Shown here piece after piece: positions 5,874 through 52,312 of a stretch of 63,147 nucleotides of DNA. Location of the stretch: assembly GCA_018812625.1 (NCBI GenBank), contig JAHJDH010000012.1, positions 1 to 63,147 of the forward strand. The letters are read 5' to 3'. Position 1 is the first letter of the stretch. The number at the start of each line of letters is the position of its first letter. The notes beneath the pieces were generated by a model that did not search any database, had not been told where the DNA came from, and saw nothing but the letters and a program-made list of their open reading frames with translations. This stretch comes from Candidatus Micrarchaeota archaeon (GTDB lineage: Archaea > Micrarchaeota > Micrarchaeia > Anstonellales > Bilamarchaeaceae). Position numbers and translations under genes: made by a program.

Positions 5874-8800
5874 TCACCACATCACTCTAAAGTTACCCAT
5901 GATTCCCCATCCCATAGGAGCATTCATAATTCCAGTAACGCTTTCTTCTTGTCCTGCCCATGGACTGAGTTGTTCTGGGGATGTAACTGAACCTGGTGCT
6001 GTTGGCCAGCTTCCTGAGTATCCCATAATATGACCAGAGATTATCGTTCCTGGGTCACTGCTTCCTGGATCCTGCCTTTCATAGGTTACTCCAAGGCCTC
6101 CTCTTAGAACTGGATATGTTTCGTATTCTGCTGCTGGATGAAGGGACCCTTCAGGCTCTGGACTTGTGGATGCATCCTCAAGCATTCTCCTTCTCTCAGC
6201 TCCTCCTTCAAAGAAGAAATGGAGACTAAGAGATTCACCTGTAGTGATGTTTGTTCTTGCCCATGTGAGTCCAACTCCCGCAGTGGTTCTTTGAAGCTCA
6301 TTTAAGTCTGAACACTCCCCTCCGCTTAGCCTTGAACAAACCTGAGCCATTTCATCAGCATTTTCAAAGACATCATCACTTGCAAATACTACTTGTCTTG
6401 TTGTCTGGTTGAAGAACACGTATGAGTATAGCTGTTCGTTTACCCTTTCAGTATTAAGCAGTGTAAGGCGATGACTTAATCCAACCTGCCAATTGGTCCA
6501 TTGCTCGTTTCCATATGTTCTCTGACCATACAATACACCTGCAAGAAGATCCTGTCTGTGATCTTGCAATAACTGTGCAAGTGCACCTATTGTCCAATTG
6601 CCCCCTGGGCTATACTGCTCATGACCTGCTTCGGTAAGAGGTATTGTTAGTCCTCCCATGAGTCTAAATGCTGTCAGTGTTCGAAGTCTTCGATCTCCTG
6701 AGAATGTAAATTCGTAGTCTTCGCCTTCTGTTGAAATGTCCAGTCTGCTAACTCCATGTCCAATGTAGTTGCCAGATTCTTCCCATTCATCAAGGTCTTC
6801 CTGAGTTCCAATCATGATAGAACCTCTTGAATTTGGACCTGTTCCAATTCGGGTTACCATGATGAAATATCTATTTCTTCTCTCTGGACTGCCTCCTTCC
6901 ATTTCTGCATTGAGGTGGCTTCCATAGATAACATCATATCGCTCTGCCTGCTGTCTTCCATGCGAGTTCAATGCTGCTGCAAGGCAAGGTCTTATGTTCT
7001 GCTCAATTATTCTTCGAACTTCGTCTCCAGTTAATTCTGCTCTTGCTGGCGGCTGTCTAATATTGACTTCAGATAAACTTGCTTCAACGCTTCCGCTTGT
7101 TCCTGCTCTTCGTACAAATTCAGTTTCTACTTCTTCAGGAGTTCTCAATACCCATCCAAGAGAATGAACATTATTTTCAATGAGCTGTACCAGTTCTTCT
7201 CCATATGCAGTAGCAATGCGTTCTCTGTTTGGATTAACTCTTCTAAGTTCTCTATATATGTCTACAATTGCTTCTGCAGTTTCGCTGCTTCTTCTTGAAG
7301 AAATTAACATTGCAAGGGGATCTTCATCCTCTTCAATCATTCTTGCAAGTTCAGTTCTCACTTGTGCAACAGGGCGAATCATCCACTCAAGACCATTTCC
7401 TCTTTGTGCATGAACAATATCTGCAAATCCTTCGCCATAAATTCTTTCCATTCTATCATGGCTGTATGCAACACTTCCAAGCCTGATATATGCATCACGA
7501 GCAGCGGCTGGATGATCTGAAGTTCTATGAAGCGTAACATTGCGCTCATATCTTGACAGTTCAATTGAAGGCCAATCAAGAACTCCAAAACCCATATATG
7601 CATCAAGATATGGATTTGCCCTCTCACTTCTTTGTACCTGGAATCCTCCTGTTGAATCAGCATCTTCTACAATCATTATTGATGAATGGGTGTACCCATG
7701 ACCAAGAAGGTCGATGTATGCACGAGCCGGCCTTCCAAATATAAACATTCCATAAAGATTTGCATATGCTGTTTCATCATCGGTCCACTGTCCTGTTGCA
7801 ATTGTGTAAATCCTTAATCGCTCTCCATCATATCCATAACCAAGTGCAAATCTCCAAATATCACTTGTAAAGTCATTTTGAAGACTTGTTGATAATCCTT
7901 GTAGAATCTGTTCTTCGTTTGTTGGATTTTGCTGAATGTCTAACATTGCCTGGTCTATCCTGTCATACAGTCTACTAAATCCAGGAACTCTTTGCACTCC
8001 AGCAAGAATTCCATGTCTCCTTGCCCAGTATGCCATAAGTAAACTTGCATAATGTTCATTCGGTGTTTCTGGCTGATCTTCTGCTGTTCCTTGCCAGCCC
8101 TCCATTCTTCCATACATGTATGTTCCAGCTACTAACCATCCAGTATCACGAGCCTCGTCCTCTCCCCAACCATACATGCTGACAAGAACATTTCTCATTG
8201 TTGCAAAAACTTCCTCTGATTCCTGATCTACTGCTCTGAATTCTCGCAGCAGATCTACTTCAGTATATCCACCAGTAAGTCCATGCCCATATGATCTGTG
8301 CGCGCCTGTCTGCCTTTCATATCTCCATCTGGCACCAGCTGTTAGTGGATATCCACCAACTGCACGGAATTCCATTGATGCTTGTCTTGGAGCAATTGCC
8401 ATTCTTCTCCACATGAATTCTCCAGAGCCCTCTGCCCAATGCGATCCATCTATACTTGTAGAATCCTCAGGATTCATTTCAAGAATCTGTGCTCCCCTAT
8501 AGAATCCTGCATAAATATCTCGAGCTCGTCCATCACTGAGAATGTGGGTTATTGCTTGTCCCATGGCCTCTTCAGCATGTTGTGGAGTCATAGTTCCCAT
8601 ATCCCGAACAACCTGTCCAAGTGCGAGAGTAGTTGAAGTATCTCCCCTAGTAGTTGGAATAGTAAAACCTACTGCAGCGCCATCAAAACCAGCAAGAGCA
8701 GATTCTCCGTTAATCTCATTCCAAACTCCCTGCTCGCGCGCAAGTCTCTCAATTTCTGCTTCGCCGGTTTGAGCTTGCTGCTCTGCATTTAGCCCAAGAT

Positions 8801-11800
8801 GTCTTTCTATTAATCTAGTTCTCTCTGCACCTGAAAGTGCTGGTGCAACTGCACTATTTCTTCCTGCAAATCTAAGGCCTGCCAGAATATTTCTGGTATC
8901 TGTACTTCCATATAAGTAATTGAGTATCTGTGCGTGCGTATCAATTCCATATGCAAGATCATATGCATTTCCAGTTGATCCATCAATGTAGAACAGCCTT
9001 GTTCTAAGCTGGCTTCTCTCATCCTGCAATAACTCACCAACTGTGCCTGCAGGAGCACCTTCTGGAACTGGCGCGCGAAGCTCTGGCGCATGTTCTCCGC
9101 CGACTATAACAAGCATATCTCCTCCAGAGTCTCTTGCAATTCTGGAATATGTTTCAAGAAGTCCAGTGTATCTTTCTCTACTTTGTACCTCTCCAGTTTC
9201 TTCAGTTGTTTGGTTAGCTCCTTCATAGTTGAATCGTATATTTCCTCGCTGCAATCCAACTCCCTGTCCAAATGCAACTGGAATAACTCCAGCAACTCCA
9301 ACTGGAAGTCCTGCTGCCTGAGCTTCAATATCAACATCAGTTTCAGCTGTTTCACTATCTCCTGAATCCTCTGATTCTACTGCTGTTCTTCTATGAGTTA
9401 CAACCCCCCGGCCTCGAACTCCTCCGGTAATTGTTCTTCCCTGTCCAACTCCTCCAACTGCTACTGCGTCTGTTGAAGTTGTATCTGAGTCTGTTGCAGT
9501 TGGGATGGTTCCCTCATGACCGTAATAGCCACCAACTTCCCAATCATGACGAAGCCAATAGCTACTATAGTCTATTGGCATCTCACCAAATAATCTTGTT
9601 ATTTCTCTTATAATAGTTGACGCGCCAAGGGCTCCGATTCTATATCTTTGCGGAATTCCGTGTATCATATGTCTTCCAAGTGTTGGGTGCAGCATGTCAT
9701 ACCTTCTTGAGAAATATTCAGTTGCACCAGAATCAAGTCCAAATCTGCTTGGAGGCTCAATCAAACTTCTTGGCATTGTTGGAGATGGGATTAAATTCCA
9801 AGGTTGTGCTGCTTGTCCATAAAGTTGTGGAAGTGGTTCCATTCCTTCCATTTGCAGGAAGTGGGGCCTGTACCTATATCCTTGAGGATTCCATGGGCTT
9901 TCCATAAGTTGCCTTTCCGGAACTCTTCTAAGTTCATCCTCCATTCTATTGTGATCATATGTTGCAGTAACTCCTGGAAGTCTCTGTCCAATTCTGGCAA
10001 ACACTTCAAGGAAGTATTCTCTGTTTCTATGTGTGCTGTAAGAAAGAGTAGCTCCTGCTGTTGAGTACATCCTGCTGAATATTGTATTGAACGCTTCAAT
10101 TCCGGCAACAAGTGTTCTTTCATCCTGTGCAACGCTGATTATTGCTGGAAGAACCTGCAGAATGAATGGACCAACTAAGTATGGATCTCTTTGACTAATC
10201 AATAATAGAGAATTCATTGTTGCCCGCGCGGCACTTGTTCCAAATTCTGAGCCCAGGCTTCCAATTCTGCCAAGTCCAACTCCAAGATAAAGTGCATCAA
10301 TAATTGAGAGCTGGTTTCTAAGATTTGTTGCTTCTCCTTCAGTAAACCCTCGTGCATCTTCTGCATCAGCAGCTATTCCGCTCTCACGTCTTCCCTGGAG
10401 ATATGTGCTCTCAAGCTGCCCGTAGAATGTTCTTCCTGCAGTAATCAAATCTCTTCCTGATTCACTGCCAAGGAAACGTGCAAGGTCTTCTGGAGTTTGA
10501 AGTCCGCTTTCTGCAGTTCCTGGCGGAAGACTGATACTGTATCTTCTTGCAAGTGTTTGCAGTTGTGAATTTAGAAGGTCCAGATTAATGAAATTTCTAA
10601 ACAGATAATCGTTTGATCCAAACTGGTCTCTGTAATGGTTAATTGCAAGAGTTAAGTTCGCACCAAGATCATCACTGGTTGCAGTTGCAAAAACAAGAAC
10701 TCCTTTGAGTCTGGAATAAACTCCTGGAAGAACATCTGCAACGTGCCTGAAGTTTTGCATAAATTCTCCACGTGCAACTCCATCTCCTGCTTCAAAGCTT
10801 CTTTGTAGCTGCTCTAATGCAGCCGCATCAACTTGTCTTAGGTGCTCAAGATCACTAGTGCTCAGGTTTTCAAGGAACCTAAGTTGCGCTCTGTTTCTCT
10901 CAACCATTTGCACAAATGCTGCTCCATATATTTGTCTCAGTCCTGCAATTCTTGCAGTTCTTGCTTCTGATGCCGGAGTGTTCAAAGCTCCATAAACAGA
11001 ACCAAGTGCATAAAGCAGTTGTTCGTCTTGGTGTCTGTATGCTCTGTGAAGCGCAGTAACTACTCTGGTATATGCTTGTGGATATGCGCGGTATAATGAT
11101 TGTCTTACTGATTCTGGAAGTGCAGTTACTTCTTCAAGTCCTGCTCTTGCCTCTGCAAGCGGAGCTAAATGTTCTCTTTGTCTTTCCACTGCACTGACAA
11201 ATCTATCGCCATAAAGCTCTACCATTCTCTCTCTCGTCTCAGTTCCATCAGGACGAGCTATTGCACGATAAACTCTGATAGTTATATTTGCAAACAATAC
11301 GTTTTGGCCCATTCTCAAATTTTGTTCGCTGATGCCAGTTAAATTTTCAAGGAACCCAAGAACTGGTCTGTGATCATTTATCAATCTGACAAATTCAGTT
11401 CCATGTCTTCTTTGCACATCAGCTACATTCCCGCTTCCTCTTGAAATTGCATTGTATGCAGTTCCAAGGTCTCTGCTAAATCCACGGTCTCCCATGCTGG
11501 AAATAAATGCTCTAAGCTCTGGATCAGCTCTGCCAAGTACAGCAAAAATAATATCTCCGATTACTGCTTGTTTGTCTGGATTTGTAACTCCACTATACCA
11601 GGCCATTCCACTTCGAAGCGATCCAACATCGCTTGAGCTTGCAATTGTTTCTGAAAATCCATCAATACTGCCTGCAGTTCTTGAAAGGTCTCCTCCAGTT
11701 TCTGCAAGATGAATCATTGAAAATGCAAGTTCAACTGATCTTCTAAGTTCAGTTCCACTAATCATGCTTTCTTGCAGTGCTCGCTGTTCTTGAAGAAGAG

Positions 11801-14498
11801 TTTGTATTTCTGCTTGATCAGCACCACCTGCTGCAAGTCTTATTCTTCTACTTTCTTCTTCCCACCTATTGATTCTTTCTTCAAGCATTGGACGTGCAGG
11901 TGCAAGCATAGGATCTTCAAGCTGCCTTCTCATGCTCTCAAGATCACGTTCAATTGTACTGGAATTTGCTGTGATCTCGCCTCGGCTTCCTTCAAGAGCT
12001 TCTCCTGATATTCCCCTTGTTCTTGCTGCTTCTCTGCTTGCAACTGGAGTTAGGAAAAATCTTCCAAGCGAATCAATTCCATCCATTCTGGCAAGTCCGC
12101 CTCTAGTCAAAGCTTCTCTTCCACTGGCATATGACAGAATGAATTGTACTGGAGTAAATGGAAATAGTAATTCTTTTGCTGATCTTGTTATTTGGTCTTG
12201 TCCTCGCAAAAGTCGTTGTTCAATACTTGCAACATTTCCGCCTAGCCATTCTAATTGCGCTCTGTTTTGAGTAACAAAATCTACTGCGGCTTGCCCATAC
12301 TGAGTAACTAATTCTGCTGTAGTTGGACTTGCCTGTCCATGAGCTGCATAAATTGCATGAAGTGCTCTTGCAAGACCTCCAATTGAATATCCAATTGCAG
12401 GTGCTCCTCCTTGAGTAGTCAGTGTATCAGCGTCACGAACAAAAACATCAGATGTTCTTGTTGTCATCTCATGTTCTATTTGCCCTACTGGTCGAACTGC
12501 CCAGTGTAATGTATCAAGATTTTGTGAAACATAATTCACAAATTCACTACCATATCTTGTAGCAAGCAATTCTCTTGTTTGCCTGAATAATGTAATCTGT
12601 GCGTATGCTGCAGATAATGTAGTTCCGCCGTCTTGTGGGAAAAGCGCCTTTAGCTGAACTGCAACTTCATCTGATTCTGCTCCTCTTCCAGGTGCTGATC
12701 TTCGATCAAGTTCGGCCTGTACCTGTTCTGGAGTTCCTGCAAGCCAGGATAGTTCAGCATAATGTTCAGTGATAATTGAGCCTGCCGGAACAGCACCTAT
12801 TGCAAGTCGCTCTGTTGCAAGCTGTCCATAAACATCTGCAAGTGCAGCGCCTCTGTCAAGTCTTTCTCCGGCTTCCACTCTAATTGTCATTGAAGAAATA
12901 CGTCTTGCATGTATGTCTTCTTCGCGTGCTCTATCTGTTAATACTCTGTTTAGATCAGTGGCAGTTCTTATCATCCAGGTTGGTCTTCTTGCTGAAACAA
13001 GTGCTATCAATTCAGGACTGTATGCTCCTCTGAGTCTATCCATATTTGGAGGGCTTCTGAGAAGTTCTATGTAAATATCCCTGATTGCAATTGATCTCAC
13101 ATTTCTTCTGAAATTCATTTCAATACTTGAGACTGTGCTGTTGCCCTGGATTTGCGCTCTATATAATCTTACAAATTCATTGAAGAAAGTATCATTTCTC
13201 TCAAGCGGTACTCTAGTGTATGTTCGAGATCCGATTTCACCTGCACCAGCAACAAAATTCCCACTATAAATTCTGATAAATTCATCTCTTGCAGTTGTAC
13301 TTCCAGTTGCAAGCACCTGCTCCATTAAAGTTGCACATCTTCTGGCTAGTCCAAGCGAAATAATGTCAACAAATCTGTCAACTGTTTCATTTCCATGTGC
13401 CTGCCTAAGCTCTTGAAGCCTTGAGACATTGCCTGTACTTGCAGCTTCATACATTTGCGAAACTGCAGTTGCAAATGCTTCTGGATCTACCTGGTTATTG
13501 TGGTGAGTATAATATGATCTGTAAACAAGGGAAATTGGTGATGGCTGTCTATGGCCTTCCTCTCCAACCTGGTCTCTTGTTATGCGCTCCAGAAATAATC
13601 TTTGGAATCCGGTCCAGAATTCTCCTGATGTACTGTGCGCTCCAAATATTCTTCTAAATTCATCTCGCTGTGCAGTATCTCCAGTGAGCATAAAGTTTCG
13701 AAGAGAATCAACACATCTTGTTGCTTGCTGGTTTGGCAATTCTCCAGATAAAAGATTAGTTAAATTTTCTCCATGTCGCTCTCTTATTTCAGCAAGTCCT
13801 GTTCCTTCGAGTACATGTCTTGCAGCATCTTCTGCAGTAGCATCTGTATGAGCTCTTCTATATGCTCTGAATCTTCCAATTTCACTTTCTGCTGGAGCCT
13901 CTGTTTCTCCTGCTCTCTCTACTCGCTGAACCACTGCATCTATAAGTGCCCATGTAGTTGCATTGGCAGCAAGCCGTGTTCTAATCTCACGAACTTTGGT
14001 AATAAAATCTTCCATAATAGAAGGTTCCATTCGAATTCCAATAACATGATCAAGATCAGCTTCATATGCTTCAAGAATTGGACGAACTTGAGCATCACTT
14101 CTCATTGTTGTCATTCTGCTATGAAGCTCATCCATAAATTCTCTGTTTTCAGTTACCGGCTGCTCCTGAAATTGACTTGTGATAAGAGCCCTGTATCTTG
14201 TATAATCAGCTTCATTTCCTGTTAAAATATAACTTTGATATGCGGTTGCAGCATCCCTAGCTCTTTGCTGAAGGCCTGCTACTTCTTCCTGTTCCGCGTG
14301 GGTAGCTCCCCTACGTCGAGTTGCCGGTTGTGCCATAACAGAATTTACCCCGAGATAATTTATATTATTACCGCCTAAGAAAACTGAGACTGCAACTACA
14401 GGTGCAAGCAAATATTTTCCAAAAATAGAAATTTTTCTGCGGCGCGGTAGCTCCCCATGATCCCCCTTTTGATCATGTTTTATTTTGGATCCAACCAT
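5874..14498 (-). CDS. Giant exported protein (2874 aa): signal peptide, alpha-helical repeats, Gly/aromatic beta-rich C-terminus ending in Trp
   Basis: Uninterrupted 8.6-kb ORF with AGGAGA SD. Basic n-region + LLAPVVAVSVFLGG h-region + VMA/Q cleavage-like site. Codon usage resembles the host's. Confidence 0.9.
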   Translation of the reverse strand: MVGSKIKHDQKGDHGELPRRRKISIFGKYLLAPVVAVSVFLGGNNINYLGVNSVMAQPATRRRGATHAEQEEVAGLQQRARDAATAYQSYILTGNEADYTRYRALITSQFQEQPVTENREFMDELHSRMTTMRSDAQVRPILEAYEADLDHVIGIRMEPSIMEDFITKVREIRTRLAANATTWALIDAVVQRVERAGETEAPAESEIGRFRAYRRAHTDATAEDAARHVLEGTGLAEIRERHGENLTNLLSGELPNQQATRCVDSLRNFMLTGDTAQRDEFRRIFGAHSTSGEFWTGFQRLFLERITRDQVGEEGHRQPSPISLVYRSYYTHHNNQVDPEAFATAVSQMYEAASTGNVSRLQELRQAHGNETVDRFVDIISLGLARRCATLMEQVLATGSTTARDEFIRIYSGNFVAGAGEIGSRTYTRVPLERNDTFFNEFVRLYRAQIQGNSTVSSIEMNFRRNVRSIAIRDIYIELLRSPPNMDRLRGAYSPELIALVSARRPTWMIRTATDLNRVLTDRAREEDIHARRISSMTIRVEAGERLDRGAALADVYGQLATERLAIGAVPAGSIITEHYAELSWLAGTPEQVQAELDRRSAPGRGAESDEVAVQLKALFPQDGGTTLSAAYAQITLFRQTRELLATRYGSEFVNYVSQNLDTLHWAVRPVGQIEHEMTTRTSDVFVRDADTLTTQGGAPAIGYSIGGLARALHAIYAAHGQASPTTAELVTQYGQAAVDFVTQNRAQLEWLGGNVASIEQRLLRGQDQITRSAKELLFPFTPVQFILSYASGREALTRGGLARMDGIDSLGRFFLTPVASREAARTRGISGEALEGSRGEITANSSTIERDLESMRRQLEDPMLAPARPMLEERINRWEEESRRIRLAAGGADQAEIQTLLQEQRALQESMISGTELRRSVELAFSMIHLAETGGDLSRTAGSIDGFSETIASSSDVGSLRSGMAWYSGVTNPDKQAVIGDIIFAVLGRADPELRAFISSMGDRGFSRDLGTAYNAISRGSGNVADVQRRHGTEFVRLINDHRPVLGFLENLTGISEQNLRMGQNVLFANITIRVYRAIARPDGTETRERMVELYGDRFVSAVERQREHLAPLAEARAGLEEVTALPESVRQSLYRAYPQAYTRVVTALHRAYRHQDEQLLYALGSVYGALNTPASEARTARIAGLRQIYGAAFVQMVERNRAQLRFLENLSTSDLEHLRQVDAAALEQLQRSFEAGDGVARGEFMQNFRHVADVLPGVYSRLKGVLVFATATSDDLGANLTLAINHYRDQFGSNDYLFRNFINLDLLNSQLQTLARRYSISLPPGTAESGLQTPEDLARFLGSESGRDLITAGRTFYGQLESTYLQGRRESGIAADAEDARGFTEGEATNLRNQLSIIDALYLGVGLGRIGSLGSEFGTSAARATMNSLLLISQRDPYLVGPFILQVLPAIISVAQDERTLVAGIEAFNTIFSRMYSTAGATLSYSTHRNREYFLEVFARIGQRLPGVTATYDHNRMEDELRRVPERQLMESPWNPQGYRYRPHFLQMEGMEPLPQLYGQAAQPWNLIPSPTMPRSLIEPPSRFGLDSGATEYFSRRYDMLHPTLGRHMIHGIPQRYRIGALGASTIIREITRLFGEMPIDYSSYWLRHDWEVGGYYGHEGTIPTATDSDTTSTDAVAVGGVGQGRTITGGVRGRGVVTHRRTAVESEDSGDSETAETDVDIEAQAAGLPVGVAGVIPVAFGQGVGLQRGNIRFNYEGANQTTEETGEVQSRERYTGLLETYSRIARDSGGDMLVIVGGEHAPELRAPVPEGAPAGTVGELLQDERSQLRTRLFYIDGSTGNAYDLAYGIDTHAQILNYLYGSTDTRNILAGLRFAGRNSAVAPALSGAERTRLIERHLGLNAEQQAQTGEAEIERLAREQGVWNEINGESALAGFDGAAVGFTIPTTRGDTSTTLALGQVVRDMGTMTPQHAEEAMGQAITHILSDGRARDIYAGFYRGAQILEMNPEDSTSIDGSHWAEGSGEFMWRRMAIAPRQASMEFRAVGGYPLTAGARWRYERQTGAHRSYGHGLTGGYTEVDLLREFRAVDQESEEVFATMRNVLVSMYGWGEDEARDTGWLVAGTYMYGRMEGWQGTAEDQPETPNEHYASLLMAYWARRHGILAGVQRVPGFSRLYDRIDQAMLDIQQNPTNEEQILQGLSTSLQNDFTSDIWRFALGYGYDGERLRIYTIATGQWTDDETAYANLYGMFIFGRPARAYIDLLGHGYTHSSIMIVEDADSTGGFQVQRSERANPYLDAYMGFGVLDWPSIELSRYERNVTLHRTSDHPAAARDAYIRLGSVAYSHDRMERIYGEGFADIVHAQRGNGLEWMIRPVAQVRTELARMIEEDEDPLAMLISSRRSSETAEAIVDIYRELRRVNPNRERIATAYGEELVQLIENNVHSLGWVLRTPEEVETEFVRRAGTSGSVEASLSEVNIRQPPARAELTGDEVRRIIEQNIRPCLAAALNSHGRQQAERYDVIYGSHLNAEMEGGSPERRNRYFIMVTRIGTGPNSRGSIMIGTQEDLDEWEESGNYIGHGVSRLDISTEGEDYEFTFSGDRRLRTLTAFRLMGGLTIPLTEAGHEQYSPGGNWTIGALAQLLQDHRQDLLAGVLYGQRTYGNEQWTNWQVGLSHRLTLLNTERVNEQLYSYVFFNQTTRQVVFASDDVFENADEMAQVCSRLSGGECSDLNELQRTTAGVGLTWARTNITTGESLSLHFFFEGGAERRRMLEDASTSPEPEGSLHPAAEYETYPVLRGGLGVTYERQDPGSSDPGTIISGHIMGYSGSWPTAPGSVTSPEQLSPWAGQEESVTGIMNAPMGWGIMGNFRVMW

Positions 14499-14573: not shown

Positions 14574-14630
14574 TATACTGATTACAACACATCTAATATT
14601 TAACATCGCGTATCCCCCCAAGGGGATTCA
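14574..14630 (-). promoter_or_regulatory. Promoter of the 2874-aa gene: palindrome ATCCCC-N4-GGGGAT, TATA-like TTAAATA, GTATA initiator-like element
   Basis: Same architecture and spacing recur at 49814-49871 and 51210-51264. Confidence 0.55.
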
Positions 14631-14885
14631 CTAAACTTGTATGGATCGGACTGTAATTATTTTACGATAACTTATCTATACTAGTTGTGTTAAGAAAAAT
14701 TAAAAAAGGGTTGTTTCAGAAAGTGACTATCAAAGGTCAAAGTCTGCCTTTGCACAAAATCCAGTTTATTAAAATGCAAAAAAGCTCCACAGATGTTTTG
14801 TCTCCTTAACCTTATCTTTGTTTTCAGTATTCTGTAACTCAAGGATTAAATAATTCTCATGAGTAGCAATGCTTGAGGTTAAAAT

Positions 14886-15539
14886 ATGGCTGATGGAATA
14901 GTCGGAACAATCTCCTGCTGGGGATATGGGTATTCTGTGAAGATGCTTGTCAATGGTAAGGATATAGGCTTATCAGGTGGAAAGTCAGAGGGCAAACGGA
15001 TATTTGGCACTGACCACCCCATGTATGATGAGGCACCTCCTGAAATGCGGGAAAAGTTTTTTGTTCTGAAAAATGGTGCAAATGAGATATCGCTCGAGTT
15101 TAGCAAAACATCTGCCAATGAAAGAGATTATCTGCAAATCTCAATGGAACTGGAAGGTTTTCCTGCGCCGGTTTTTCTGCTACATAGCAGAACAAAAGCT
15201 TCATCTAAAATAAAAAGCTCCATTCAGATCCCTTCTGAAGGTGAGTTCATGCCAGTATTTGTTTCGGATGCAGGAGAGAACAAGCTCGTATTCATCCATG
15301 TGCAGAGTATGAATTGTAATGTCACTCCAATATTGAACGGCAAGGAGGGGATGAGCCTAAATGGCACGCCTGGTCAGGTTGTGCTTGAGAATGTGAAAAC
15401 TGGCAAAAACGAGCTGGTAATTCAATATCAGACTCAAGAGAGACTGAAAATCGCTCTGATAACTCCTGAATGGGTGAAATATCTGGAAACTGCTGATGGC
15501 TCTGAAAAAACAGAGACATTTACATTTAATTCTAAGTGA
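14886..15539 (+). CDS. Hypothetical all-beta protein with an internal duplication
   Basis: GAGGT SD. The halves VKMLVNGKDIG...LKNGANEISLEF and VTPILNGKEG...VKTGKNELVIQY resemble each other. Confidence 0.7.
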   Translation: MADGIVGTISCWGYGYSVKMLVNGKDIGLSGGKSEGKRIFGTDHPMYDEAPPEMREKFFVLKNGANEISLEFSKTSANERDYLQISMELEGFPAPVFLLHSRTKASSKIKSSIQIPSEGEFMPVFVSDAGENKLVFIHVQSMNCNVTPILNGKEGMSLNGTPGQVVLENVKTGKNELVIQYQTQERLKIALITPEWVKYLETADGSEKTETFTFNSK

Positions 15540-15544
15540 GAATC

Positions 15545-16597
15545 ATGAATGACCTGCTTGAAAAGCTGAAAAGCCCGGACATTGCACAGAGGAGGAAGGC
15601 TGCTAATAATCTTTCGGAATCCGGTATGGATATAGCTCAGGCATTGCCTGCAATAAAGGAGGCGTTCGGTAAAGAGAAGGACACCTGGATCAAAGGAATT
15701 TTGGCAGGGGCTCTTGCCGCGCATTATGTTCAAAAAGGCATGACAGATGAGGCAGTCAAGTTTCTTGATGATAAGAATGAACGGGTTAGATACTACACTG
15801 CAAAGGAATTGCGAAATGCCAGCATGGCCGGAGCTGACATAACAGCTGCTCTTGTGCCTCTTATGAAAGTGCTAATTGGCATGGATGTGGATGTTCGGCG
15901 TGTGGCTGGCCAGGCGATAGTTGCCTATTATGCCAAAAGAAAACAATGGAATGATATAAATGCAATTCTGGTTGCCAAGGGAGCGCGGGGCAAATATGAA
16001 ATTATCGTTGCCCTGCAGGATTTTGTCAGTGGGGTTATTGAGCTTCCAAGTCTCTTGAGCATGCTCAAAGATGGCGACTTTGACTCAAGGAAAGAGGCGG
16101 CTTCGGTTCTTAGAAAAGCATCAGAAACTGGTATTGATATTTCTTTTGCTGTTCCTGCGCTAAAATCAGTGCTCTCAGATAACTCAGCCGGAGAGGAGGC
16201 CCTCAATGCGCTGAAGATATATGATTTGAGAGCAAGCGGCAAATGCAGCAGATGCCTGGAGGGCCTTTTTGAAGGGGATGTTCTGGAGAAACTGGCTACT
16301 ATCATAAAAGGAATGTCCTGCTGTGGCGGGGATGTCTCGCACAATATTTTCCGCTGTCCTGACTGTGGCAAATACTATCTGACAACTTTCTTTGACCATT
16401 CTGATTTCGATCACGGGCAGTTTTATGTTTATGGGATAAGCGAAAAGGACGCTAAGATGGTAGTTGTTGAAATTGGGAAGTGCCCGGCAAATGGGAATCG
16501 GCATTGCGACTGTCAGGTTCACATGGTGTTTTTGAAGGATGAGAAAGTGCCTGTTGATGGTAAGCTGAAACACTCTGTCGAAAAGATATCTACATAG
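15545..16597 (+). CDS. HEAT-repeat protein with Cys-rich (putative Zn-binding) C-terminal domain
   Basis: HEAT-like units (RRKAANNL, VRYYTAKEL, VRRVAGQAI, SRKEAASVL) followed by CSRC, CC, CPDC, CPANGNRHCDC. Confidence 0.75.
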   Translation: MNDLLEKLKSPDIAQRRKAANNLSESGMDIAQALPAIKEAFGKEKDTWIKGILAGALAAHYVQKGMTDEAVKFLDDKNERVRYYTAKELRNASMAGADITAALVPLMKVLIGMDVDVRRVAGQAIVAYYAKRKQWNDINAILVAKGARGKYEIIVALQDFVSGVIELPSLLSMLKDGDFDSRKEAASVLRKASETGIDISFAVPALKSVLSDNSAGEEALNALKIYDLRASGKCSRCLEGLFEGDVLEKLATIIKGMSCCGGDVSHNIFRCPDCGKYYLTTFFDHSDFDHGQFYVYGISEKDAKMVVVEIGKCPANGNRHCDCQVHMVFLKDEKVPVDGKLKHSVEKIST

Positions 16598-16606
16598 GGG
16601 GATAGC

Positions 16607-16957
16607 ATGGATACTATATTTGATTACAGCCTTATTTTAGCAGGAATTTGCCTTGCCTTTTTCATTTTGATTTCCATAATAGGCTCGGTTCTTGAGAAAA
16701 AAATGGACAAGGCTAAGCATAAAAGGGCAGGAAAACTCATGATAAAAATTTATTTTGTCCTTTTCATTGTTTTTGGATTTTCTTTGGTTCCAATTATGGC
16801 AGGGATGATTTTTGGATTCATTAAAGATGTGCTCCAGGCCGATCTCTCGGAGTTTGAACTGCCTATAATCCTTTTATTTTGGGGACTTTACATTGTTGGC
16901 TTGGCTATAGCATACCCTGTGATGAAAAGAAGCAGCTTCTTCGAACCAGGAAAATAA
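16607..16957 (+). CDS. Small 3-TM membrane protein
   Basis: Three hydrophobic segments; GGGGGA SD. Confidence 0.75.
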   Translation: MDTIFDYSLILAGICLAFFILISIIGSVLEKKMDKAKHKRAGKLMIKIYFVLFIVFGFSLVPIMAGMIFGFIKDVLQADLSEFELPIILLFWGLYIVGLAIAYPVMKRSSFFEPGK

Positions 16958-16992
16958 TTATTGGATATTCAGAGAATCACTATACAAAGCAG

Positions 16993-40097: not shown

Positions 40098-41003
40098 TTA
40101 TTTATCAAAATTTGTATATTGTTCTAGTAATTGATTGGCAAGAAATATTGCAAATGGTTTTTCCTCTCCATTATCTGATGCTTCTATTACGTTGTAATAC
40201 TCCTCCTTATTTTGGACACTGATGATTACTGGTGGGAATTTCTTTTTCATTAGTATCCAGTTCATTACAAGTCTTGATGTTCTTCCATTTCCATCTGTAA
40301 ATGGATGTATTTGTACAAAATTATTGTGAAACCAACCGGCTAATTCAACTGGATGTAGTTTCATTTTTATTTTTTTGTATTTGCTAATCATTTTTCCCAT
40401 CTGGTTTTTGACTTCCTTAGCTTTGGGGGGTTTCCATTCAGATCCTCCTATTCGAACTTCTCCATCTCTGTATTTTCCCTGTATCCTACATTTCGTGTTT
40501 TTTGTAACTTCATACTGTAACTTCTGTAGAAACTTTTCATTGAGACTGCCATTGTATTTTTTGATAAAATTCCATGCATCCTTACCATTCATAACTTCTA
40601 TAACATCCTCTGTTTTGGTACCCTGAGGAGCAATATCATCTGATAAAATGAGTGCAGTTTGTCTTAAGCTAAGTGGATTCCCTTCTATTGCATTAGTGTT
40701 ATATGTAAACCGTACGAGGAAGTCTTTTGGGGCCAGATCACTAGGCAAACCTTTGAATATTGTTACAGTAGCATGAAGGTCCTCAATTCTTTCAATTGTT
40801 TCTTTGGGCAACCATTTGGCCGAATATGGTTTTGGTGCTTTTTTTTCAATTTCTTTGAATAATCCCTGTAATTTCTCATGTGGTGGAATTTTTTTACCAA
40901 GAAAAATCCTGACTTTTTTTACAACTGTTGGAGACATTCTTACATTTTTCACTAAGTAGTAATAGAAATTATCTCCGTGCCTTTGTTTTTCTATAAATGA
41001 CAT
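40098..41003 (-). CDS. fic: Fic-domain protein (AMPylase), class II-like with internal inhibitory helix
   Basis: HPFTDGNGRTSR catalytic motif; TNAIEGN matches the (S/T)xxxE(G/N) inhibitory motif. Confidence 0.93.
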   Translation of the reverse strand: MSFIEKQRHGDNFYYYLVKNVRMSPTVVKKVRIFLGKKIPPHEKLQGLFKEIEKKAPKPYSAKWLPKETIERIEDLHATVTIFKGLPSDLAPKDFLVRFTYNTNAIEGNPLSLRQTALILSDDIAPQGTKTEDVIEVMNGKDAWNFIKKYNGSLNEKFLQKLQYEVTKNTKCRIQGKYRDGEVRIGGSEWKPPKAKEVKNQMGKMISKYKKIKMKLHPVELAGWFHNNFVQIHPFTDGNGRTSRLVMNWILMKKKFPPVIISVQNKEEYYNVIEASDNGEEKPFAIFLANQLLEQYTNFDK

Positions 41004-48955: not shown

Positions 48956-49792
48956 TTATTGCTGACTCACTACAACAACTGATGTCGTTGCACCATACTC
49001 AATTACTCTATCCACGGGAGAAGCTCTCTGTCTTACTGATTCAGAAAGATTCTCTACAAAAGGACCGGTCAACTGGGGGTTCAAGCCTCCAGTTTCAAGC
49101 TGATGGAGAACATTCTCAGGTCTTACTCTACCATCTTTTTCAACTATTGGTGAAAATTCACTTACTTCAAGTGGTCCTGTTCTATTCCCATAAACCCTGA
49201 CAACAAAGTCTCCATTAGTGCCATCCGTAAGTGTAATATTTCGCATTACAGCTCCAATGTATCTTGGCTGACTTGTTTCTGTGTATCTTGGATTTAGAAG
49301 AAGATTTTTATCAACTCCAATCTTCTGATAATGCATCCAATAAAATATTTTGTTTTCTCCAGAAACATTTGCAGTTGCTTTAATCAATCTCATTCCATCT
49401 ACCATTGTTCTTTCATAATCAATTTGAGGTTGTTTACCTGTTCCTCCTGCCAGTGGGATTACGAATACTGCAGCAGTTCCTTTAAGGCCAGAAGCCATTT
49501 CATTTAGTTTTTTGAGAACCGCGTCCCCTCTTCTTCCAGTTGTTAGTACACTCGCAGAAACACCAAGTGTACTTGTGGCTGGCGCCATTTTTGCCTTTGT
49601 TGTTCTTTTTATTTCTGTGTAGCCCTGCTTGGACGAATCGGCTGTAGCCGGTTCCTTTGTTTTCATTCCCGATCCGCAACCAGTAAGCAAACCAACTGTT
49701 CCCAAAACAATTAATCCTTCACTAACTGTCTTTGGAAGTTTAGGCAATTTGTTAATTAGTCTCCTATTTTTTTCTACAATCTTTCTATTCAT
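48956..49792 (-). CDS. Putative lipoprotein, paralog of 49931-51193
   Basis: Lipobox-like LTGC (Cys39); conserved C-terminal domain LLLNPRYTETSQPRY. Confidence 0.85.
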   Translation of the reverse strand: MNRKIVEKNRRLINKLPKLPKTVSEGLIVLGTVGLLTGCGSGMKTKEPATADSSKQGYTEIKRTTKAKMAPATSTLGVSASVLTTGRRGDAVLKKLNEMASGLKGTAAVFVIPLAGGTGKQPQIDYERTMVDGMRLIKATANVSGENKIFYWMHYQKIGVDKNLLLNPRYTETSQPRYIGAVMRNITLTDGTNGDFVVRVYGNRTGPLEVSEFSPIVEKDGRVRPENVLHQLETGGLNPQLTGPFVENLSESVRQRASPVDRVIEYGATTSVVVVSQQ

Positions 49793-49813: not shown

Positions 49814-49871
49814 TATACATTATGTATAACTCAATCTATTTAATACAAATGTCCCCCCTTATGGGGACTCA
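49814..49871 (-). promoter_or_regulatory. Palindrome-TATA promoter (GTCCCC-N6-GGGGAC; TTAAATA; GTATA)
   Basis: Matches the elements at 14574-14630 and 51210-51264; 18-nt TATA-GTATA spacer. Confidence 0.55.
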
Positions 49872-49930: not shown

Positions 49931-51193
49931 CTAGCGTATCAGAACAACTGATGTTGTTGCGCCATACTCATGCACTGTGTCAGTTGGAGAATTTCTTACT
50001 CTTGCTGACTGAGAAAGGTTTCCTGAAAATGGACTGTTTATTTCTGGAACCAAACCTCCTGCTTCAAGCTGATAGAGAACATTCTCAGCTCTTACTCTGC
50101 CATCACTTTCAACTATTGGCGAAAATTCTCTTGTCTGCGAAGGTCTTGTGTTATTCCCATAGACTCTGACAACAAAGTCTCCAGTAGTGCCATCGGTAAG
50201 TGTAACATTCCTCATGACCATTCCACTATATCTTGGTTGGCTTGTTTCTGTGTATCTTGGATTTAGAAGAAGCTGATCATTTCCAACGCTCTGGTAGTGA
50301 AGCCACAAATATGTGCCTTCTCCAGTTACATTTGCAGATATTCTAAGCATCCTCTCCCCATCTACTGAAATTCTCTCATGGTCGATCTGAACCTGCCCGC
50401 CAGATACTACTCCTGATTGAAGTACCATCATTGCTGCGGTTCCTCGAATGTATGGAAGCCTTGAATCTAATTGATCAAGTTCCTGCTCGCTCATTTCAAG
50501 TGTTCGGCCTGCTGCAACAAGAGAATCTGCAATTCTTCTTCCTTCTGCAACATCCCCAGCTGCTCTTTCTGCAGCAGTTCCTTGAAGATTCAAAATTTCA
50601 TGCTGTGCTAAACTTGCTATCACTTCCTCTGTTCCGATAAATCTTACTCTGATCATTCCTGGCGCCAGGTTTGAGATATCACATTCATTTTCCCTGACCA
50701 GTCCCATTGAATTTAATGACTCCCATTCGCCGGTTTCCCTGTTATAATATTCGAATTCCAAGGTAGGGTTTTCCAATCGTATTATCCCAACTGTCATAAC
50801 TGCTTCAATTGCTCTATCGTTTATGCACTCATTCATACTTCCAGATCCTCTACAATCCTCTACTATTCCTTCCATAACCTCTCTGATACTTTCTCCGCCT
50901 GTGCTGGAAGCTGGTTCAAATACAATGACTTCTGCACTCAATGTTCTGCCATCAGCACTTGGAGCAAGTACGACCTGGCTCTCAAGAAGTGCTTCTCTTT
51001 CAGTTAGTGTTGCACCGGATGCTTGCTCTACTCTAGCTGCTGTTGCCATCTTGGCACCACAAGCACCTAGACTTCCAACCATTCCCAAAACAAGCAATCC
51101 TTCACCAATAACTTTTGGAATTTTAGGAAATCGTTTTTTTGATTTCTCTGCATTATTATTCCTTCTACTTTGTTCTAGTTCTCTTCTACCCAT
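49931..51193 (-). CDS. Putative lipoprotein with extra N-terminal domain
   Basis: Lipobox-like LGAC (Cys45); C-terminal ~170 aa paralogous to the downstream gene. Confidence 0.85.
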   Translation of the reverse strand: MGRRELEQSRRNNNAEKSKKRFPKIPKVIGEGLLVLGMVGSLGACGAKMATAARVEQASGATLTEREALLESQVVLAPSADGRTLSAEVIVFEPASSTGGESIREVMEGIVEDCRGSGSMNECINDRAIEAVMTVGIIRLENPTLEFEYYNRETGEWESLNSMGLVRENECDISNLAPGMIRVRFIGTEEVIASLAQHEILNLQGTAAERAAGDVAEGRRIADSLVAAGRTLEMSEQELDQLDSRLPYIRGTAAMMVLQSGVVSGGQVQIDHERISVDGERMLRISANVTGEGTYLWLHYQSVGNDQLLLNPRYTETSQPRYSGMVMRNVTLTDGTTGDFVVRVYGNNTRPSQTREFSPIVESDGRVRAENVLYQLEAGGLVPEINSPFSGNLSQSARVRNSPTDTVHEYGATTSVVLIR

Positions 51194-51209: not shown

Positions 51210-51264
51210 TATACACTACCTATAACCTAACTCTTATTTAATGGGGTGCTTCCCACCAGTGGGA
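51210..51264 (-). promoter_or_regulatory. Palindrome-TATA promoter (TCCCAC-CA-GTGGGA; TTAAATA; GTATA)
   Basis: Third copy of the architecture; 20-nt spacer. Confidence 0.5.
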
Positions 51265-51340: not shown

Positions 51341-52312
51341 ATGCACAAGATGACAAACCTCGAATATTCATTCATAACTTCTGAACTATCAGCACTAGTA
51401 GTTGGAAAACACTTTTCCAGGATCAGAAAAGTTGGTGATGGGATTTACCGAATGAAAATAGGAACCTTCGAAATTCTTTGCGAGCTTGGAGTTCGTCTTC
51501 ATACTACTAAATATATGGAAGATCCACAGCCTCATGACAAGTTTGTTCAAAAACTGGAAAAAGAACTTGATAATGCAAAACTCCTTGAAATAAAACAAAT
51601 CAACAGCGACAGAATAATCTCATTCGATTTCGATCGTGCAAGTTTAGTATTTGAAATGTTTGGAAAGGGCAATATTATTCTCGTTAAAGAAGGAACAACT
51701 GTTGCTGCATTCAAATATGAAACCTGGTCAGATCGTGAAATTAAAGTTGGCAGCCCCTACAAGTCTCCAAGTAATGTCCCAATGGAAAAACTAGTTCCAT
51801 CTGATAAGTACATCATTGTATCGCTAATGAAGCTTCCTCTTGGAAAGGAATATGTTCAGGAAGCTCTTCTTCGATCTAGCATTGAAGAGAAAACCCCCGG
51901 ATCCAAACTTACCCCAGAGCAACTAGCCGAGCTTGAGAAACAACTTGAGATTATAAAATCCTCAACTTCTCCTCATCTTTACAAAAGTGGAGAAAAACCA
52001 ATCGCATTTTCATTGACTAGTATAACGCCTCTCTCTGAATTTACTTGCGAAGAAACAAACTCTTTGAGCGAGGCTGCAGATGAATATTACAAGAATGTGG
52101 ATGCTCCAAATGTAGATCTTGAAAAACTACAAAAGCGCCTTGAAAAGCAAAATGAGCGGGTAGAGCTTCTAAAGCAGGAAGAGATCGCCTATAAAGAAAA
52201 AGGCGATTACATATACGCTCATTATATGGAAGTCCAGCAAGTGCTCGAAGAAGCTAAAGCTGGAAAAGGAGAATTAAATAAAAAAGAAAAATCAGTTGAA
52301 GCAGAAATCTAA
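51341..52312 (+). CDS. rqcH: NFACT-N (Rqc2/RqcH) protein, N-terminal half only
   Basis: SDRII and EMFGKGNIIL motifs, HhH region, coiled coil KLQKRLEKQ; stops before the NFACT-R domain. Confidence 0.8.
   Translation: MHKMTNLEYSFITSELSALVVGKHFSRIRKVGDGIYRMKIGTFEILCELGVRLHTTKYMEDPQPHDKFVQKLEKELDNAKLLEIKQINSDRIISFDFDRASLVFEMFGKGNIILVKEGTTVAAFKYETWSDREIKVGSPYKSPSNVPMEKLVPSDKYIIVSLMKLPLGKEYVQEALLRSSIEEKTPGSKLTPEQLAELEKQLEIIKSSTSPHLYKSGEKPIAFSLTSITPLSEFTCEETNSLSEAADEYYKNVDAPNVDLEKLQKRLEKQNERVELLKQEEIAYKEKGDYIYAHYMEVQQVLEEAKAGKGELNKKEKSVEAEI

Follow-up and report, generated by a model that had tools for sequence, protein, structure and literature searches.

A palindrome at a fixed distance from the TATA box marks putative operators of a TrmB-like regulator in Micrarchaeota

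A stretch of 63,147 nucleotides of Candidatus Micrarchaeota archaeon (GenBank assembly GCA_018812625.1, contig JAHJDH010000012.1), analysed at its full length and called the window here, contains three minus-strand promoters in which a G/C-rich palindrome is located just upstream of the TATA box. Within the assembly, designated G000 (1.27 Mb, 43 contigs), the window corresponds to contig C35. One of the palindromes (S1) precedes the gene of an exported protein of 2874 amino acids (aa) and the other two (S2 and S3) precede lipoprotein genes. All three are probably operators of a winged-helix regulator of the TrmB family, which would be encoded on contig C31 by two paralogous genes, TF-A and TF-B. 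An earlier note on this DNA had proposed that a single transcription factor governs the giant gene jointly with both lipoprotein genes, and this now appears very probable for one family of factors, considering the conserved motif, the adjacency of regulator genes to it and the palindromes that match the clades of the regulator.

Read on the gene strand, S1 is tgaATCCCCttggGGGGAT-acgcgatg-TTAAATA-19 nt-GTATAGG (nt, nucleotides; the ATG of the giant gene is at 14498), S2 is tgaGTCCCCataaggGGGGAC-atttgta-TTAAATA-19 nt-GTATAAA (ATG at 49792) and S3 is TCCCACtgGTGGGA-agcacccca-TTAAATA-21 nt-GTATAAA (ATG at 51193), the palindromes being letter for letter those described in the note. The shared order is a G/C-rich inverted repeat with 6-bp arms, a spacer of 7-9 nt (8-9 nt if measured from the core GGGA), TTAAATA, 19-21 nt, GTATA and a leader, which in each case contains a Shine-Dalgarno sequence before the ATG. 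Spacing and conservation make GTATA a plausible start site in the three promoters. The elements and their neighbouring genes are these:

14612..14627, minus strand: S1 operator, ATCCCCTTGGGGGGAT, with the core TCCC-N6-GGGA at 14626-14613
14597..14603, minus strand: S1 TATA box TTAAATA, 9 nt downstream of GGGA
14574..14578, minus strand: S1 GTATA, predicted initiator region, 19 nt after the TATA box (spacing is the sole evidence)
49851..49868, minus strand: S2 operator, GTCCCCATAAGGGGGGAC, with the core TCCC-N8-GGGA at 49867-49852
49837..49843, minus strand: S2 TATA box TTAAATA, 8 nt after GGGA
51251..51264, minus strand: S3 operator, TCCCACTGGTGGGA
51235..51241, minus strand: S3 TATA box TTAAATA, 9 nt after GGGA
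5874..14498, minus strand: target gene 1, exported giant protein of 2874 aa, with a 98-nt leader and the Shine-Dalgarno sequence GGAG
48956..49792, minus strand: target gene 2, lipoprotein of 278 aa, lipobox LLTGC, paralog of target 3
49931..51193, minus strand: target gene 3, lipoprotein of 420 aa, lipobox LGAC, with a leader of about 19 nt and the Shine-Dalgarno sequence GAGAGGG
51341..52312, plus strand: NFACT-domain gene in divergent orientation, served by a separate leaderless promoter (cTTAAAA at about 51311)

The giant protein is unrelated to the two paralogous lipoproteins. Because the divergent NFACT gene has its own promoter, S3 is situated in untranscribed DNA between two promoters. 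Throughout G000 the TATA-like heptamers peak 21-30 nt before start codons, and therefore most genes of this genome are leaderless and (T)TTAAATA is its general TATA consensus. The leaders of S1-S3 are thus atypical.

The pattern is very unlikely to appear by chance. TCCC-N6-8-GGGA-N5-12-TTAAATA has three matches in the window compared to 0.00 expected (none of 100 dinucleotide shuffles had any match), and among the 23 occurrences of TCCC-N6-8-GGGA in the whole assembly only S1-S3 adjoin TTAAATA. A position weight matrix built from related sites gave eight hits above 26 bits in G000, while shuffled genomes gave 0-1 hits that were barely above 12 bits. Such a genome-wide search had been suggested in the note, and it has extended the motif well beyond S1-S3, to about ten sites in G000 (relaxed and matrix scans together) and 1-13 in related genomes.

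Judged by the giant protein, the closest relatives are G002 (97% identical) and G001 (88%). In both genomes the sites orthologous to S1 (ATCCCCttagGGGGAT in G002 and ACCCCCaaGGGGGA in G001) and to S3 (ACCCACtgGTGGGA and tgcaTCCCACttgCGGGAtgca, respectively) are altered but kept. The flanks have changed in these promoters, in contrast to the nearly identical stretch between the TATA box and GTATA. In the giant-gene promoter of G001, 38 nt from the TATA box to GTATAGGCAACTG are almost identical and both flanks have diverged. The 278-aa gene is absent, together with S2, at the corresponding locus of G001 and G002. Further away, the positional ortholog of the 420-aa lipoprotein in G052 is preceded by TCCCCtcctaGGGGGA, 9 nt and TTTTTATA, beside an NFACT gene that is only 62% identical.

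At the level of the genus, the composite promoter has the consensus TG-nn-TCC[C/T][A/C]C[C/T]-n-GGGGGA-[C/T/A][G/A]C-n6-TTWWATA, with a moderately conserved GTTGTAA 7-9 nt after the TATA box. In 40 genus genomes TCCC-N6-8-GGGA-N5-12-TTWWATA had 37 matches, against 5 for the reversed control, and the genus scan for the TCCT variant (TCCTCCYRGGGGGAY) added 13 clear sites of the consensus type. We have pooled 38 consensus-type sites from two genus scans (permitted gap 5-12 nt), an order-level scan (permitted gap 8-10 nt) and one site fetched separately. In 35 of them GGGA and the TATA box are 9 nt apart. Between the half-sites there is N6 in 28, N7 in 4 and N8 in 6, and in most of the sites the halves are one helical turn from each other. 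The motif is slightly asymmetric, with a nearly invariant right half (GGGGGA or GGGGA in most of the sites) and a left half that varies; S1-S3 are among the few perfect palindromes of the set, in which only 6 of the 38 have at least six perfect arm pairs. Many target start codons in G052 are found 22-29 nt after the TATA box, matching the distances of leaderless promoters, which confirms the orientation of the motif and TTWWATA as a functional TATA box. Between the right half and the TATA box there is room only for the TFB recognition element (BRE), and the operator is directly upstream of BRE/TATA at a conserved distance, as in archaeal upstream activating sites. The shared cis element that the note had placed just upstream of BRE/TATA is well supported by this combination of conserved motif and fixed spacing.

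None of the approximately 30 proteins of the window is a candidate regulator by Pfam. The candidate, TF-A (254 aa, C31:9895-10656, plus strand), is divergent from a motif site on C31. Its paralog TF-B (C31:18953-19714, minus strand) has its own variant of the palindrome, 3-4 nt from its TATA box. TF-A belongs to the Pfam TrmB winged-helix family PF01978 (63 bits, E=2.4e-17, cut-off 25.6), and so do all 120 of its homologs listed, many of which are named TrmB by their sources. The AlphaFold model (predicted local distance difference test score 90.1) has the full TrmB architecture, with a winged helix, a long dimerisation helix (73-106) and a beta-rich, PLD-like alpha/beta domain at the C-terminus (113-249). 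Foldseek matched this model to TrmBL2 (5bqt, E=2.8e-15, 271 columns), to the TrmB effector domain (2f5t, E=2.4e-5) and to PLD-fold nucleases (E~1e-6). Only 147 columns of the model align to the 233-residue sugar-binding domain of TrmB, and Pfam shows no C-terminal family. By sequence only the N-terminal 100 residues or so align to TrmB, TrmBL1 and TrmBL2, and the NCBIfam equivalog cut-offs for TrmB, TrmBL1, TrmBL2 and haloarchaeal TrmB are not reached, the best being TrmBL1 with 45.6 bits against 650. Given this limited alignment and the low scores, TF-A represents a separate TrmB subfamily.

The regulator is connected to the motif indirectly, by adjacency in at least 12 genomes, by palindromes that differ between clades and by co-occurrence. 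A motif site adjoins the regulator gene in G000, G001, G012, G018, G021, G022, G044 (two loci), G066, G145, G157 and G172. In G066, G145, G157, G012, G021 and G044 the gene across the motif codes for a protein of about 255 aa starting with MDxxxLExxGLTxGExKAYLALLKLGSSSTGP. Of the 91 genomes covered by a family-wide search, 20 have close orthologs of TF-A. When 36 of these regulators are arranged in a maximum-likelihood tree, the palindrome at this promoter position proves to be clade-specific: CCCC..GGGG types in the core clade, CACCA..TGGTG in the clade of G017, G155, G164 and G174, TCCCCCTAGGGGGTCGTAG in a clade of paralogs that are 30-40% identical, and TACTAC..GTAGTA in the outgroup clade (G149 and G170). 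Among 26 genus genomes the motif was present in six of the seven that have a core-clade regulator and in none of the 19 without it (hypergeometric p ~3e-5 by our own arithmetic). A third regulator paralog that could fit the S1/S2 type of site was not found in the assembled parts of G000 or G001.

The further sites that the scans revealed in G000 outside the window are the following:

C12:12550-12579: operator site upstream of a 362-aa repeat protein
C20:7467-7496: operator site preceding a five-gene operon that encodes tandem paralogs of the C12 repeat protein
C43:21174: operator site upstream of another paralog of the C12 repeat protein
C13:24004: operator site upstream of a 163-aa protein
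C2:11398-11427 (locus L100): operator and TATA module between tandem aspartate-rich lipoprotein genes, antisense to them; the orientation is kept in G001 and G002
C31:9832-9861 (locus L099): operator and TATA module adjoining the TF-A gene and directed into the 3'-terminal part of an HPr-kinase-like P-loop gene (8849-9784)

The repeat proteins constitute a paralog family of soluble proteins of about 350 aa (C4:6697-7899, C12:12629-13717, five in tandem at C20:7545-12808, C37:15830-16870 and C43:21251-22312), and three promoters of the family carry the operator. They share the N-terminus M(R)KxQKxPAEELRKKKQEPLAEGLQ and a repeat of about 50 aa, SWKD..EE.V.FA.K....IT....L...D.GLY..L..RGL...VGF. 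The C12 and C20 proteins gave only sub-threshold matches in Pfam, PHROGs and the sequences of PDB. The giant and the 163-aa protein had no Pfam match, and P0001, P0002 and P0004/P0005 had none in the libraries each was tried against. The C2 module is flanked by P0005 (11454-12203) and P0004 (10580-11281), both on the minus strand, and it points into the 3' end of P0005 with no open reading frame downstream; it may be the promoter of an antisense RNA or have a long-range effect on P0004. The C31 module has an oligo-T stretch about 190 nt past it, and its equivalent in G001 drives an aspartate-rich lipoprotein. It looks like an orphan promoter left behind by a recent loss of the lipoprotein gene in G000.

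Across species the proteins downstream of the motif are lipoproteins, small proteins with a signal peptide, and soluble HEAT-repeat, ankyrin and other repeat proteins. An N-terminal hydrophobic segment resembling a signal peptide or lipobox was found in 8-10 of 32 of them, compared to 27.6% of the predicted proteome of G000, and among the G000 targets 3 of about 9 are exported. Export as the defining trait of the regulon, which is how the note had put it, has to be abandoned since this is the background level and soluble proteins and the regulator itself are among the targets. What survives is a milder form of the idea. Of the 13 genes located back to back with the regulator gene, 8 code for lipoproteins or small exported proteins similar to outer-membrane proteins, and genes in this position are probably the oldest targets. 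Beyond the genus, matches to the pattern do not exceed background, apart from single consensus-like sites in G066, G145, G157 and G070. These precede exported beta-rich proteins of 220-250 aa, three of the four ending in an aromatic residue, as small outer-membrane proteins of bacteria do.

The proteins at loci L124-L127, L080 and L066, in genomes of the family other than G000, are exported and 221-343 aa long, with much alternating, beta-strand-like sequence. They resemble bacterial outer-membrane barrels, and five of the six end in phenylalanine (...GYSF, ...VGVRF, ...VSKTF, ...LGLTF). The barrel-like gene is the divergent partner of a TrmB-like gene in four of these six genomes. Distant homologs are found in G000 on contig C8 (4524-4922 and 6483-7163). 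As for the two lipoproteins of the window, they share an N-terminal P..P..[GS]EG[LI] just before the core of the signal peptide that was found in no other G000 protein. The same motif is present in a soluble HEAT-repeat protein of G052 with an operator promoter (locus L094), and the repeat-protein family has the related KEPLAEGLQ. In G052, 10 of the 13 motif sites are concentrated in one 132-kb contig (C5), including three near-identical tandem copies (3008, 4642 and 9609), which suggests an island of fast-evolving regulon genes.

The region upstream of the giant gene has a second conserved element:

14685..14735, minus strand: distal element GTCAC..CCCTTTTTTAAT..AACACAAC, also upstream of the giant-gene orthologs of 11 further genus genomes, most of them without the palindrome module

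It has the form GTGACA-n-CCTTTTTWAT-n9-AACACA, is located about 115 nt further upstream than the palindrome, and is probably the ancestral promoter, the T-rich terminator of a former upstream gene, or both. Since most species have this distal element as the only promoter-like sequence before the giant gene, the palindrome module must be a clade-specific addition. Beyond it, a cassette of about 2.4 kb (window 14740-16990) with three plus-strand genes (14886-15539, 15536-16597, with HEAT repeats, and 16607-16957) stands between the giant gene and what was once its upstream neighbour, a 799-aa SGNH-hydrolase gene. G001 and G002 have the end of the SGNH-like gene (...RRVLRGL*) immediately ahead of the upstream element of the giant gene. 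The cassette is flanked by an imperfect direct repeat of about 30 bp (gactgtaactgctttgtatagtgattctctga compared to gactttgacctttgatagtcactttctga).

As to the mechanism, we propose that a dimer of the regulator would bind the two half-sites, at about -57 to -42 and directly upstream of the BRE, would touch the TFB/TBP complex and in this way would set the activity of about ten promoters: those of the giant gene, the two lipoproteins, three of the repeat-protein family, the 163-aa protein and the regulator's own genes. The contact with TFB/TBP is suggested by the distance being fixed to the base pair. Activation at S1-S3 seems somewhat the better supposition, with repression a substantial second choice, because the site is upstream of BRE/TATA, the spacing is rigid and the BRE is less rich in A, as in the upstream sites of TrmBL1 and in TFB-RF1. 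The A content at -6 to -4 is 42-50% in generic leaderless promoters of G000 (about 45%) and about 33% in the motif promoters, figures that come from a small sample and a weak generic signal. The regulators' own promoters have a different geometry, with the site 3-5 bp from the TATA box or, in G012, G021, G006 and G050, between the TATA box and the start, which would suggest autorepression there.

Several observations weigh against this proposal. A half-site distance that varies (S2 has N8) is unusual for a rigid dimer, and the weakness of the BRE at motif promoters is slight and based on small numbers. Three sites of G000 (C2:11398-11427, C31:9832-9861 and the TF-B site) face convergent 3' ends or no open reading frame, so that motif and TATA box do not always drive a gene. 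The palindrome of the giant gene could also be a roadblock within a longer transcript, or one of two tandem promoters. Finally, TrmBL2, the closest structural relative, binds DNA with low specificity. This last point, together with the sequence-based nature of the support for binding by the TrmB family, would favour a real operator that belongs to some other factor and has the TrmB-like neighbour merely as one of its targets; along the same lines, G002 has motif sites but both regulator paralogs are lacking in its 65%-complete assembly. We consider this improbable, given that the type of palindrome follows the clade of the adjoining regulator in the 36-member tree, that motif and regulator co-occur across genomes, that autoregulated factors as a rule share a single operator with a divergently transcribed target, and that no other DNA-binding protein was found beside any motif site. 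More serious is the possibility that the same regulator acts through the same sites as a repressor, its footprint covering the BRE and blocking TFB until a signal releases it. Classical TrmB represses by covering BRE/TATA (PMC4706686), the targets have near-consensus TATA boxes, which would suit promoters of high strength in the unrepressed state, and the sites in the regulators' own promoters have a repressing geometry. Simple occlusion, however, could work without base-pair-exact spacing, the best-studied relative activates from sites upstream of BRE/TATA, and A is less frequent at the BRE positions of the targets than at those of generic promoters, all of which leaves repression at S1-S3 as a possible but rather unlikely reading.

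The two remaining explanations do without a regulator. The palindromes could form hairpins, either as a DNA cruciform, as an RNA stem-loop in a long 5' leader that starts at the distal promoter of the giant gene, or as a terminator or insulator for the upstream gene. S1-S3 do have perfect 6-bp G/C arms, whose single strands fold at -4.6 to -6.4 kcal/mol, S2 is 65-80 nt past the stop codon of the upstream gene and S1 is downstream of the conserved promoter-like element. Nevertheless, changes in the arms are not compensated. All 10 sites with T at left position 4 have G opposite it, as do 10 of the 12 with A at left position 5; compensation was seen in none of these T-variants and in one of the A-variants, which argues for a protein site rather than a hairpin. 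It is the left half that varies, the right one being nearly constant, S3 is located, like several further sites, between divergent promoters in DNA that is expected to be untranscribed, the folding z-scores are weak (-1.0 to -2.5) and a search of Rfam gave no match. The missing covariation, the z-scores, the Rfam result and the location rule out a hairpin, terminator or RNA element as far as we are concerned, and only a very small likelihood is left to it. Common descent, i.e., a promoter cassette copied along with gene duplications and devoid of shared regulation, hardly deserves any credence either. It would have in its favour that S2 and S3 precede tandem paralogs, that the promoters at C12 and C20 have 89% identity across 110 nt, and that P0001, P0002 and the HEAT-repeat protein of G052 share the N-terminal P..P..[GS]EG[LI]. 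Except for the C12/C20 pair, though, the sites have nothing in common beyond the 17-22 nt of the motif, S1 precedes an unrelated gene, and motif and spacing are kept in orthologous promoters with diverged flanks. For S1 against S2/S3 a duplicated cassette was discarded, as blastn detects no homology between the sites beyond the motif, and the note was right in that duplication does not explain the likeness of the giant-gene promoter.

The putative TrmB-like regulon can be compared with several known archaeal systems. TrmBL1 (Tgr) of Thermococcales, with the operator TGM (TATCAC-N5-GTGATA), is similar in its palindrome of two half-sites, in the protein (a TrmB-family winged helix, a coiled coil and a C-terminal alpha/beta domain in both) and in having a motif-defined regulon of tens of promoters. 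Its effect is tied to the position of the site, with activation from upstream of BRE/TATA and repression from downstream, both of which can occur at one divergent pair, and one site can serve two divergent genes, as would be the case here (PMC4706686). However, the micrarchaeal motif is unrelated, G/C-rich (TCCYMCY-n-GGGGGA) and asymmetric, it keeps a constant 9 bp from the TATA box whereas the distance of TGM is variable and reaches 156 bp upstream, the regulator is shorter (254 aa compared to about 340) and has no evident sugar-binding subdomain, and the targets are surface and repeat proteins of obscure role instead of sugar metabolism. The promoter architecture is best matched by TFB-RF1 (PF1088) of Pyrococcus furiosus, whose palindromic motif (TCTGAANTTCAGA) directly precedes a weak BRE and a bona fide TATA box, with the distance kept throughout an order (PMC5937170). 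TFB-RF1 belongs to another protein family and has a tiny regulon (two operons), and its activation by recruitment of TFB is experimental while here it is inferred. TrmBL2 (PDB 5bqt, 5box and 5bpd) is the closest solved structure over the full length, with about 260 residues in both and 18-19% identity, but it is an abundant, chromatin-like coat of DNA with little sequence preference, unlike the micrarchaeal protein, which is tied to one co-varying motif. Lastly, the N-terminal region aligns to classical TrmB of Thermococcus litoralis and P. furiosus (operator TACTNNNAGTA; PDB 3qph and 2f5t; residues 11-107 of 3qph, E=1.6e-5), and the TACTAC..GTAGTA palindromes of the outgroup clade resemble the TrmB site. 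Classical TrmB, in contrast, is a repressor that sits on BRE/TATA and is released by sugar, and the subdomain that binds the sugar is not evident in the micrarchaeal regulator.

The predicted system is a member of the known class of TrmB-family regulons and the first regulon that can be read in Micrarchaeota. To our knowledge, gene regulation in DPANN archaea is almost unstudied, and the single paper found that mentions Micrarchaeota along with promoter and TATA does so only in passing. Here, the factor, the operator, the geometry of the promoter and the list of targets of one regulatory unit can be read from sequence alone. The regulon joins some of the puzzling genes of G000, i.e., the 2874-aa surface giant, the lineage-specific lipoproteins and the large family of repeat proteins, and provides a handle on the signal that induces surface proteins in these symbionts. 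With its invariant 9-bp spacing it is also a clean case for how an archaeal regulator contacts TFB/TBP. A more speculative view, which we put forward with considerable doubt, is that the regulator might be the master switch of a programme of surface and host contact in symbiotic Micrarchaeota, docking on TFB/TBP with base-pair precision, and that its regulon might have grown from one divergent pair of regulator and envelope genes to 10-13 promoters in some species. Such a programme would span giant surface proteins, lipoproteins, small outer-membrane-like barrels and HEAT, ankyrin and other 'effector-like' repeat proteins.

The gene content of the window is archaeal (CDC48, NFACT, fibrillarin and eIF-6), and homologs of its proteins carry the label Candidatus Micrarchaeota. 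Amid housekeeping genes there is a 301-aa Fic/DOC protein (PF02661, E=3e-21), encoded at 40098-41003 on the minus strand.

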